A stretch of DNA of 64,000 bases from Escherichia coli. GTDB lineage: Bacteria; Pseudomonadota; Gammaproteobacteria; Enterobacterales; Enterobacteriaceae. Under the pieces are notes generated by a model, which did no database searches, was not told the DNA's origin, and was given only the letters and a program-made list of their open reading frames with translations. The DNA lies in NCBI RefSeq assembly GCF_003334385.1, contig NZ_QOWN01000009.1, one strand, 5' to 3'. The position numbers were made by a program, and so were the translations under genes. Shown here in pieces: positions 28,581-33,344 of the stretch (position 1 is the stretch's first letter; the number at the start of each line of letters is the position of its first letter).

Positions 28581-29339
28581 ATGAAACAAACACAACGTCA
28601 CAACGGTATTATCGAACTGGTTAAACAGCAGGGTTATGTCAGTACCGAAGAGCTGGTAGAGCATTTCTCCGTCAGCCCGCAGACTATTCGCCGCGACCTC
28701 AATGAGCTGGCGGAGCAAAACCTGATCCTGCGCCATCATGGCGGTGCGGCGCTGCCTTCCAGTTCGGTTAACACGCCGTGGCACGATCGCAAGGCCACCC
28801 AGACCGAAGAAAAAGAGCGCATCGCCCGCAAAGTGGCGGAGCAAATCCCCAATGGCTCGACGCTGTTTATCGATATCGGCACCACGCCGGAAGCGGTAGC
28901 GCACGCACTGCTCAATCACAGCAATTTGCGCATTGTCACCAACAATCTCAACGTTGCTAACACGTTGATGGTAAAAGAAGATTTTCGCATCATTCTCGCC
29001 GGTGGCGAATTACGCAGCCGCGATGGCGGGATCATTGGCGAAGCGACGCTCGATTTTATCTCCCAGTTCCGCCTTGATTTCGGCATTCTGGGGATAAGCG
29101 GCATCGATAGCGACGGCTCGCTGCTGGAGTTCGATTACCACGAAGTTCGCACCAAACGCGCCATTATTGAGAACTCGCGCCACGTTATGCTGGTTGTCGA
29201 TCACTCGAAATTTGGCCGTAACGCGATGGTCAATATGGGCAGCATCAGCATGGTAGATGCCGTCTACACCGACGCCCCGCCGCCAGTAAGCGTGATGCAG
29301 GTGCTGACGGACCACCATATTCAACTGGAGCTGTGCTGA
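28581..29339 (+). CDS. glpR: glycerol-3-phosphate regulon repressor GlpR (DeoR family), intact
   Basis: 252 aa with a DeoR-type N-terminal HTH (QRHNGIIELVKQQGYVSTEELVEHFSVSPQTIRRDL). Confidence 0.93.
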   Translation: MKQTQRHNGIIELVKQQGYVSTEELVEHFSVSPQTIRRDLNELAEQNLILRHHGGAALPSSSVNTPWHDRKATQTEEKERIARKVAEQIPNGSTLFIDIGTTPEAVAHALLNHSNLRIVTNNLNVANTLMVKEDFRIILAGGELRSRDGGIIGEATLDFISQFRLDFGILGISGIDSDGSLLEFDYHEVRTKRAIIENSRHVMLVVDHSKFGRNAMVNMGSISMVDAVYTDAPPPVSVMQVLTDHHIQLELC

Positions 29340-30909
29340 TCCTGCACGGCTTCCCACGTCAGACCAAAACGCGCCAGGTATTTGCGTAGCCGATCCGCGT
29401 CATTGACGCTGGCTTTGCCCTGGCGCGAAACGTCAAAAAGCTGGCGTCCGGCTGCGGAAAGCGACTTTGCCTGGCGGCAGATAGCGATAACGTGTTCCAG
29501 TTGCATACGGTCGAAGAGATCGATGTTTTCTGCCTCTGCGCCCAGCAACGCCGTAAGCGCGGAGGGGCGGCTCTCCTGCCAGTTATAGCGCAGACGGTTT
29601 ATCTCATCTTCAACCACGTCCAGAGTGATGCGTCCGCTAGTGGCAAAGGTGGCCATCCGCGTGACGCTGGCAGAAAGTTCGCGAAAGTTACCGCGCCATG
29701 TTGCCTGGGGAGAGGTCGCAAAAGCCAACCAGGCGCGCCGCGCTTCGGTGTTAAAACGCACGCTGTCGCCAGTGAGTGAGGCGTGGCGCTCCACTTCATA
29801 ATCCAGGTTCGGTTCAATATCTTCCTGGCGCTGGCGTAGACCCGGCAGGGTGAAGGTCCAGAGATTGATCCGCGCGTACAGATCTTCGCGAAATTTGCCT
29901 TCGGCAACCAGCTGGCGCAAATCGCGCACCTAAGCTGAAAATCACTGCTCACCTGGCGATCGCTGCCAAACGGGTAAAAGGTTTTCTCTTCAATGGCTTT
30001 CAGCAGCATTGCCTGTTCGTCTGCGCCCAGTTCGCCAATCTCATCAAGAAACAACATTCCGCCGTTGGCGCTGCGTAATAAACCTTCACGAGATTCCCGC
30101 GCCCCGGTAAACGCGCCTTTTACATGACCAAACAGCGTCGACATGGCGGTATCGCCGCGCAGGGTGGCGCAGTTCACTTCCACAAACGCGCCGCTAAACT
30201 GATGCCGCGCCTGTTTTAACTCGAAGATGCGTCGCGCCAGAAATGACTTGCCCGCGCCGGTTGGACCGTTAAGCAGAATCGGCGCGCGGGATTTGATCGC
30301 CACTTTTTCGATCTGCTCAATCATGCGGTTGAAGTGGGGGTTACGCGTGGCAATGCCGGACTTAAGAAAATCAAGCGTTTGCTGGCGTTCCTCGGCAAAG
30401 CGGCTGGCGATGGCGTTATAACGGCTTAAATCGAGATCGATAATCGTTACTTCACCTGGGCCGCGCGGCTGTTCTTTTTTGCGCGGAGGTGAAGATTGTA
30501 TCAGCCGGGCGGGCAGGTAACGCGCTTCTGCCAGCAGAAACCAGCAAATCTGCGCGACGTGGGTACCGGTGGTGATGTGAATTAAATAGTCTTCTTTTTC
30601 TGGCTGAAACTCGTAACCACGGGCGAAATCATGCAGGCAGGCGTAGACCTCTTCGAAATCCCACGGGTTATGCAGTTCAATCTCAACGCTCACCACTTCT
30701 GTTTCTGGCGAAACGCTGGCGATATCGCGTTTAAGCGTTTCAAATAGCGAGCGCGAGCGGGCGTCGTGCAACAATTCCAGTCGATCGATGACCAACGATT
30801 CTTGCTGGCATAAACAGAGTGTCGGACGCCATTTTGACCAGCGCTGACTGCCGCGCCCGGCATAATCCAGTACGGTACCGACAAAGCCAAAAGCCACTGT
30901 TTTACGCAT
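29321..30909 (-). pseudogene. rtcR: sigma-54-dependent activator RtcR, frame-disrupted at about 29929-29932
   Basis: N-terminal ORF 30909..29599 has the CARF-like N-domain and AAA+ Walker A (GPTGAGKS), GAFTGA and Walker B (LFLDEIGEL) motifs but leaves the frame after ...SSDFQL; the C-terminal part (VRDLRQLVAEGKFREDLYARIN... and the HTH) continues in another frame as ORF 29929..29321. Confidence 0.7.
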
Positions 30910-31043
30910 CTTAGATATCCTTATAAAAGACGATATTTCATTATCGGTAAATTGGCTTTGCGGGAAATCTCCGGTTACGGACGTAAAGATATAATCTTTT
31001 TTAAAACAATGAATTAAAAAATTAAGCTGCTTATTTAATTTTC

Positions 31044-31059
31044 TGGCACGACGGTTGCA
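31044..31059 (+). promoter_or_regulatory. sigma-54 (-24/-12) promoter of rtcBA
   Basis: TGGCACgacggTTGCA matches the TGGCAC-N5-TTGCA consensus exactly, about 40 bp upstream of the rtcB start. Confidence 0.8.
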
Positions 31060-31097
31060 ATTATCAGGACAGCAAACAACGAAAAGAGAAAAACAAA

Positions 31098-32324
31098 ATG
31101 AATTACGAATTACTGACCACTGAAAATGCCCCGGTAAAAATGTGGACCAAAGGCGTGCCGGTAGAGGCCGATGCGCGTCAGCAACTTATTAATACGGCGA
31201 AGATGCCGTTTATTTTCAAACATATTGCGGTAATGCCTGATGTACACCTGGGTAAAGGTTCCACCATTGGTAGCGTGATCCCGACCAAAGGGGCGATTAT
31301 TCCGGCGGCGGTGGGCGTGGATATTGGCTGTGGAATGAACGCGCTGCGTACCGCGTTAACGGCGGAAGACCTGCCTGAAAACCTGGCAGAGCTGCGTCAG
31401 GCGATTGAAACGGCCGTGCCGCACGGGCGTACCACTGGCCGTTGTAAACGTGATAAAGGTGCCTGGGAAAATCCACCTGTTAACGTCGATGCTAAATGGG
31501 CTGAGCTTGAAGCCGGTTATCAGTGGTTAACGCAAAAATATCCCCGTTTCCTGAATACCAATAACTATAAACACCTGGGAACGCTGGGAACCGGTAACCA
31601 CTTTATTGAAATCTGCCTTGATGAGTCGGACCAGGTGTGGATTATGCTGCACTCCGGTTCACGCGGAATTGGTAACGCCATCGGGACTTACTTTATCGAT
31701 CTGGCACAAAAAGAGATGCAGGAAACGCTTGAGACGTTGCCGTCGCGTGATCTGGCGTACTTTATGGAAGGTACGGAATACTTTGATGATTACCTGAAAG
31801 CCGTGGCCTGGGCGCAGCTTTTTGCCAGCCTTAACCGCGATGCGATGATGGAAAACGTGGTAACGGCATTGCAGAGCATTACGCAGAAAACGGTCAGACA
31901 GCCACAAACGCTGGCGATGGAAGAGATCAACTGTCACCACAACTATGTGCAAAAAGAACAGCACTTTGGTGAAGAGATCTACGTGACGCGTAAAGGCGCG
32001 GTGTCTGCGCGTGCTGGTCAATATGGAATTATTCCCGGTTCGATGGGAGCAAAAAGCTTTATCGTCCGTGGGCTGGGAAATGAAGAGTCGTTCTGTTCGT
32101 GCAGCCACGGTGCCGGGCGGGTAATGAGCCGAACTAAAGCGAAAAAACTGTTCAGCGTGGAAGATCAAATTCGTGCCACCGCGCATGTGGAATGCCGTAA
32201 AGATGCCGAAGTGATCGACGAAATCCCGATGGCGTATAAAGATATTGATGCGGTGATGGCGGCACAAAGCGATCTGGTGGAAGTTATCTATACCCTGCGT
32301 CAGGTGGTGTGCGTAAAAGGATAA
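31098..32324 (+). CDS. rtcB: RNA-splicing ligase RtcB
   Basis: 408 aa with conserved metal-binding motifs (HSGSRGIG ... CHHNY ... SHGAGR). Confidence 0.95.
   Translation: MNYELLTTENAPVKMWTKGVPVEADARQQLINTAKMPFIFKHIAVMPDVHLGKGSTIGSVIPTKGAIIPAAVGVDIGCGMNALRTALTAEDLPENLAELRQAIETAVPHGRTTGRCKRDKGAWENPPVNVDAKWAELEAGYQWLTQKYPRFLNTNNYKHLGTLGTGNHFIEICLDESDQVWIMLHSGSRGIGNAIGTYFIDLAQKEMQETLETLPSRDLAYFMEGTEYFDDYLKAVAWAQLFASLNRDAMMENVVTALQSITQKTVRQPQTLAMEEINCHHNYVQKEQHFGEEIYVTRKGAVSARAGQYGIIPGSMGAKSFIVRGLGNEESFCSCSHGAGRVMSRTKAKKLFSVEDQIRATAHVECRKDAEVIDEIPMAYKDIDAVMAAQSDLVEVIYTLRQVVCVKG

Positions 32325-33344
<1,020 letters not shown>

Follow-up and report, generated by a model that had tools for sequence, protein, structure and literature searches.

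An intact sigma-54 promoter of rtcBA beside a frameshifted rtcR activator gene in an Escherichia coli lineage

The sigma-54 promoter of rtcBA is intact in the stretch of E. coli chromosome analysed here (64,000 nucleotides in all, referred to as the window), and the divergent gene for its dedicated activator, rtcR, carries a 10-bp deletion that shifts its reading frame. We consider it probable, at roughly 85%, that this known promoter is now orphaned, with a null rtcR allele and with rtcBA expression that is basal and non-inducible. The promoter is already known and is an experimentally documented textbook element; the novelty lies in the private allele of its activator. We infer the loss of the activator, and the non-inducibility that would follow from it, from the mechanism of bacterial enhancer-binding proteins (bEBPs) and from published data on K-12 delta-rtcR strains. 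The window spans the glg-glp-rtc-mal-gnt-feo-ompR region of an ordinary E. coli chromosome, in which rtcR (minus strand, ATG at 30909) is divergent from rtcB (plus strand, ATG at 31098), and rtcA comes directly after rtcB.

The rtcBA promoter and its intergenic region

The element TGGCACgacggTTGCA, read directly from the sequence at 31044-31059 on the plus strand, lies 38 nt 5' of the rtcB ATG and, written as TGGCACGACGGTTGCA, fits TGGCACG-N4-TTGCW at every position. Its -24 element, TGGCAC (31044-31049, plus strand), and its -12 element, TTGCA (31055-31059), are separated by the spacer gacgg (31050-31054), and the GG at 31045-31046 and the GC at 31057-31058 are exactly 10 bp apart, as expected of a sigma-54 promoter. 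The exact pattern TGGCAC-N5-TTGCA occurs once in the 64-kb window as compared to 0.11 expected occurrences, and at least one occurrence was found in 11 of 100 shuffled sequences; with one mismatch allowed, the three matches in the window (2.17 expected) are no different from chance. The motif alone is just mildly improbable, and it is the context that identifies the promoter. The element points at rtcB from within the 188-nt rtcR-rtcB intergenic region and leaves a short leader. Taking C31058 as position -12, transcription is predicted to start at C31070 (plus strand), preceded by A31069, with a 28-nt leader to the rtcB ATG. This predicted start fits the choice of ApC (-1/+1) as primer for native PrtcBA in PMC9650030 and also the value of 28 in a table of PMC4591121, on our own reading of what that column means.

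The same sequence has been documented in K-12. The 17-mer CTGGCACGACGGTTGCA is the K-12 sigma-54 ChIP-seq site OS35 upstream of b3421 (rtcB), which is flagged C in the last column of the sigma-54 ChIP-seq table (PMC4591121), and the 26-mer tttcTGGCACGACGGTTGCAATtatc appears among known sigma-54-dependent promoters (PMC2831329), with a position of -54 to -37 relative to the ATG. The sigma-54 dependence of PrtcBA was described by Genschik et al. 1998, as cited in PMC5175333 and PMC9650030. We conclude that 31044-31059 is the known sigma-54 promoter of E. coli rtcBA and that it is intact. The earlier note on this DNA had claimed a consensus sigma-54 promoter of rtcBA at this site, and the full consensus, an intergenic region identical to that of K-12 and the ChIP-seq site all bear the claim out.

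The divergent regulatory region between rtcR and rtcB (30910-31097, 188 nt), to which the literature assigns a UAS and an IHF site, is base-for-base identical to that of K-12 MG1655, so that promoter experiments performed in K-12 apply directly to the window. When the two promoters are compared, the -24/-12 element, the 188-nt intergenic region, the orientation and the distance to rtcB are identical and there is no difference in cis; the sole difference is in trans, namely the frameshifted cognate activator gene in the window. The functional PrtcBA reporter described in PMC5175333 carries the 175 nt that precede the rtcB ATG, corresponding to 30923-31097 here. In an alignment of five divergent E. 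coli lineages, the -24/-12 16-mer was identical in four and contained TGGTAC in the fifth, and other intergenic positions were substituted. The lineage with TGGTAC in place of TGGCAC in the -24 element is strain RIVM_C037791 (NZ_CP086624.1; alignment columns 139-170), which has an intact rtcR and whose leader also exhibits a 2-nt deletion and substitutions; sigma-54 binding may be weakened in this variant.

PMC9650030 states that an RtcR UAS and an IHF site exist upstream of rtcBA; when the supplements to that paper were searched for the hybrid promoter's UAS and IHF sequences, they yielded a plasmid name only. An inverted-repeat search for the UAS over 30900-31100 returned AT-rich low-complexity pairs only, none of them convincing. 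The imperfect pair TCGGTAAA...TTTACGGA, which shows up in the lineage alignment at 30944-30951 and 30974-30981, was rejected as a UAS, as only six of its eight positions match in the window. A weak candidate for the IHF site is AAACAATGAATTA at 31004-31016 (plus strand), which has one mismatch to WATCAANNNNTTR; matches with one mismatch are common (74 in the window as compared to 50 expected). Centred at about -60 and invariant across the five divergent lineages, this putative site is well placed for a bend in the DNA that separates the UAS from the -24 element.

The rtcR deletion and its distribution

Alignment to strain M217 and to K-12 shows rtcR to be a pseudogene (29321-30909, minus strand) of 1589 nt, as compared to the normal 1599, with a frameshift at codon 327. 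The 10 deleted bp (TCGCCGGAAC) are rtcR gene nt 980-989, and at the junction (29930-29931, minus strand) the gene-strand sequence CTTA[TCGCCGGAAC]GGTG has become CTTAGGTG. The gap is the sole difference from strain M217 across 1.9 kb of alignment. From K-12 rtcR, the window differs by the gap and by one SNP, which changes residue 229 from L (K-12) to F (window). The closest genome, MB06232, could be aligned over 49.8 kb with 11 substitutions and a single indel, again the 10-bp gap. A microhomology or repeat was considered as the mechanism of deletion and rejected, as no such sequence flanks the junction.

A sequencing or assembly artefact, behind which the activator would be intact and the promoter would work normally, has in its favour that the lesion was seen in a single window sequence and that its junction is in no complete RefSeq E. 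coli genome. When an 80-nt probe was used to seek the junction in 5,426 complete E. coli genomes, it was absent: the 4,267 full-length matches were all gapped, at 88.9% identity, and the seven matches at 99% identity or more were partial. However, a clean 10-bp deletion in non-repetitive sequence is atypical of read errors, and the exact 436-aa product of the lesioned gene is present in a public protein collection and is encoded on five contigs. Two of these, L003 and L004 (runs SRR3823653 and SRR1815429), match the window at 100% identity along 7.3 and 6.4 kb, respectively, with junction and promoter included. Because the exact product and junction recur in contigs of different runs, the rtcR lesion is genuine and belongs to a small lineage, and an artefact is most improbable. 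The earlier note had taken the neighbouring activator gene to be disrupted; it was correct to do so, and the disruption is a 10-bp deletion that is identical in independent sequencing runs.

Five metagenome scaffolds (L005-L009) that share the 202-aa C-terminal ORF of the lesioned gene were considered as further carriers and rejected, as they exhibit 100-N scaffold gaps and 55-nt duplicated overlaps and no deletions. These scaffolds come from different studies, and the 100-N gap falls in the same stretch of rtcR in each (about gene nt 750-1035; locus positions ~1884-1988). The gap is flanked by the 55-nt duplicated overlap in four of the five, and in L006 and L009 the part upstream is 95-97% identical to the reference and the part downstream 99.7-100%. 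The pattern probably reflects assembly breaks caused by strain mixtures together with selection by the exact-ORF query.

The truncated RtcR product

Intact RtcR has 532 aa, comprising a CARF domain (PF06956, residues 2-185), a sigma-54-interaction AAA+ domain (PF00158, 187-354) and an AAA lid (362-443), followed by a DNA-binding domain. In the window the gene reads as two ORFs on the minus strand that overlap by 331 nt (29599-29929). The first (29599-30909) encodes 436 aa, of which 326 are native residues and 110 form an out-of-frame tail; the second (29321-29929) encodes 202 aa corresponding to native residues 331-532 and starts with a GTG directly after the junction TAG. By motif search, the 436-aa product retains the CARF domain (PF06956, residues 2-185), Walker A (215-222), GAFTGA (265-270) and Walker B (286-290), and it has lost sensor I T330, the R-fingers R344 and R350, sensor II R413, the lid and the DNA-binding domain. 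Its AAA+ domain is incomplete, with sensor I, the R-fingers and sensor II beyond the frameshift, and the C-terminal DNA-binding domain is out of frame, residues 331-532 being available in the shifted frame only. The residue assignments follow PspF T148, R162, R168 and R227, which we take to be the equivalents of RtcR T330, R344, R350 and R413; the PspF sequence was checked against the published numbering, and over the mapped stretch the alignment is gap-free, with each RtcR residue equal to the PspF residue plus 182.

Comparison with the NCBIfam RtcR equivalog model (NF038308) gave a consistent picture. The intact reference scored 852.4 bits, the 436-aa ORF 535.9 bits (profile positions 1-324) and the 202-aa ORF 282.1 bits (positions 328-529), so both window fragments fall below the cut-off of 650 bits. 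Relative to the RtcR family, the first 326 residues are native, with residue 229 the sole difference from K-12 RtcR, and the product is truncated after L326 and below the family cut-off. The allele is probably null because its product is without R-fingers, sensor residues and DNA-binding domain. Because the AAA+ fold is interrupted and is followed by the 110-aa out-of-frame tail, which has a high content of Ala, Leu, Pro, Arg and Trp, it also appears doubtful that the 436-aa product forms a stable protein. Other frameshifted RtcR proteins (P0017-P0030) have the same out-of-frame tail.

Truncation of RtcR at the opposite end has the opposite consequence. According to PMC9650030 and PMC5175333, RtcR without CARF keeps a complete AAA+/DNA-binding module and activates the promoter, being constitutively active, whereas the window allele keeps CARF and has its AAA+/DNA-binding module destroyed.

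Since the two ORFs overlap by 331 nt and jointly encode nearly all of RtcR, one might imagine activity being rescued by ribosomal frameshifting or by a split RtcR assembled from the two products. This is scarcely conceivable. In the downstream frame, a TAG newly formed at the junction stands immediately before the GTG; on inspection, slippery heptamers were absent, as was any usable Shine-Dalgarno sequence 5-10 nt upstream of that GTG. Moreover, the deletion removes I327-T330, including sensor I T330, so that even a restored frame would be without a catalytic residue, and each fragment is below the RtcR model cut-off.

The earlier note had also raised dominant effects of a stable truncated RtcR. 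A stable product could conceivably have a dominant or new function by sequestering 2',3'-cyclic-phosphate tRNA halves, by binding basal RtcA/RtcB, or by poisoning the hexamers of other bEBPs. Mixed hexamers between different bEBPs are, to our knowledge, not an established phenomenon. In favour of such a function are the intact CARF domain (residues 2-185) and the literature finding that CARF on its own binds tRNA fragments as well as RtcA/RtcB in vitro. Against it, the AAA+ domain is cut before the sensor I strand and continues into 110 out-of-frame residues, which makes misfolding or proteolysis likely, and there would be no wild-type RtcR to dominate because the locus is single-copy. The rtcR locus matches a median of one place per E. 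coli genome, and copy number is taken here from that species median, with rpoN and the remaining genome, where a second copy or a suppressor might lie, falling outside the window. With one rtcR copy and no wild-type subunit to poison, the proposal of dominant effects is unsupported, and we consider a dominant or new function of the fragment very unlikely.

Expected rtcBA expression and natural loss of the Rtc response

Both enzymes of the operon are intact. The rtcB ORF (RNA ligase, 31098-32324, plus strand) encodes 408 aa and the rtcA ORF (RNA 3'-phosphate cyclase, 32328-33344, plus strand) 338 aa, both proteins are identical to the MB06232 products, and Pfam RtcB and RTC domains were found on contig L003, which is identical to the window. 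At 32322-32330, the rtcB stop codon TAA is followed at once by ATGATG, the start of rtcA, an arrangement that suggests translational coupling of ligase and cyclase.

To isomerise, a closed complex of sigma-54 holoenzyme requires ATP hydrolysis by an activator hexamer bound at the UAS. In the window, RNA polymerase-sigma-54 should still form a closed complex at the intact promoter, and the 10-bp deletion, by shifting the rtcR frame after Leu326, would remove the dedicated activator. The truncated RtcR would be unable to bind the UAS, to form an ATP-hydrolysing hexamer or to remodel the closed complex. The operon would then stay at its basal level and give no response to damaged tRNA or rRNA, to ribosome-targeting antibiotics or to oxidative lesions.

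Published work on K-12 is consistent with this expectation. According to PMC5175333 and PMC9650030, expression of rtcBA in K-12 depends on both RtcR and the sigma-54 promoter, and induction needs rtcR; induction of PrtcBA by VapC, for example, is RtcR-dependent (PMC5175333). The uninducible rtcBA proposed in the earlier note thus appears well-founded, as induction of K-12 PrtcBA needs rtcR. K-12 delta-rtcR is more sensitive to VapC, colicin D and tetracycline (PMC5175333), and its ribosome content under tetracycline is lower (PMC12606134). The same phenotype would be expected of the window strain as of the Keio delta-rtcR strain of K-12, namely absence of RtcR-dependent PrtcBA induction, increased sensitivity to VapC, colicin D and tetracycline, and fewer ribosomes under tetracycline. 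The Keio mutation is a clean deletion, whereas the window allele is natural and leaves a CARF-containing fragment.

It is also possible to suppose that rtcBA can still be induced to a meaningful degree when RtcR is lost. Another bEBP might cross-activate the sigma-54 promoter from solution, an alternative promoter might be used, or the mRNA might be stabilised. bEBPs normally require their own UAS for effective local concentration, which argues against the first of these routes. A search of 30700-31300, between rtcR and the rtcB start, identified no sigma-70-like promoter, which argues against the second. Some RtcR-independent expression is nevertheless on record: RtcB is not fully abolished in K-12 delta-rtcR (PMC5175333), and RtcR-independent rtcBA induction has been reported for Salmonella, where it was attributed to global effects or alternative promoters, as cited in PMC9650030. 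However, the inducers tested in K-12 act via RtcR, according to PMC9650030 and PMC5175333. Meaningful induction without RtcR is thus unlikely, and we favour an intact, orphaned promoter with basal rtcBA expression. If this holds, the lineage cannot switch on RtcB/RtcA RNA repair. K-12 cells that lose the Rtc response become less tolerant of tRNA-cleaving toxins and of ribosome-targeting antibiotics such as tetracycline (PMC5175333 and PMC12606134). With its promoter and both enzymes intact, the strain would represent a natural delta-rtcR background that should be complemented by wild-type rtcR. The significance of the allele beyond strain annotation is slight.

Loss of the Rtc response is a common and recurrent natural event in E. 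coli, and the lesion in the window is an ordinary lineage-specific pseudogenisation. Among 5,425 complete E. coli genomes, 581 (about 11%) match just the last 384 nt of rtcR. In the one example genome of this type that was inspected, strain LS4 (NZ_CP024717.1, 3501-4287), an annotated 3' remnant of rtcR directly adjoins one of rtcA; this rtcR'-rtcB-'rtcA deletion has taken away the promoter and rtcB, along with most of rtcR and rtcA. Both alleles are natural routes to Rtc loss at one locus. Unlike the rtcR'-rtcB-'rtcA deletion, the window keeps the promoter, rtcB and rtcA, and its activator alone is broken and should be restorable by supplying rtcR. The 90%-identity cluster of the 436-aa product contains other truncated RtcR proteins with frameshifts at many codons between about 326 and 358, and metagenome contigs carry the rtcR nonsense mutations G329* (L010, 490-495, low coverage) and Q324* (L011, 1983-1985). 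Some of the public rtcR truncations may be sequencing errors. One could go further and propose that a stable 436-aa product serves as a decoy for 2',3'-cyclic-phosphate tRNA halves and basal RtcA/RtcB, or disturbs other sigma-54 activators, and that selection and not drift lies behind the repeated inactivation of Rtc, a proposal to which we give very little credence. Frequent natural Rtc loss might merit a population-genetic look, and it is unsurprising for a stress-specific accessory system.

Two minor features of the surrounding window were noted. At 29321-29339, rtcR (minus strand) and the convergent gene glpR (28581-29339, plus strand) share 19 nt at their 3' ends, as in reference genomes, and glpR, a DeoR/GlpR-family regulator gene, is intact in the window. 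The RyhB sRNA gene lies at 8199-8263 (plus strand) between yhhY and yhhX (Rfam RF00057, 83 bits), and one of the 11 substitutions relative to MB06232, a SNP at 8142, is 57 nt upstream of RyhB and thus promoter-proximal.
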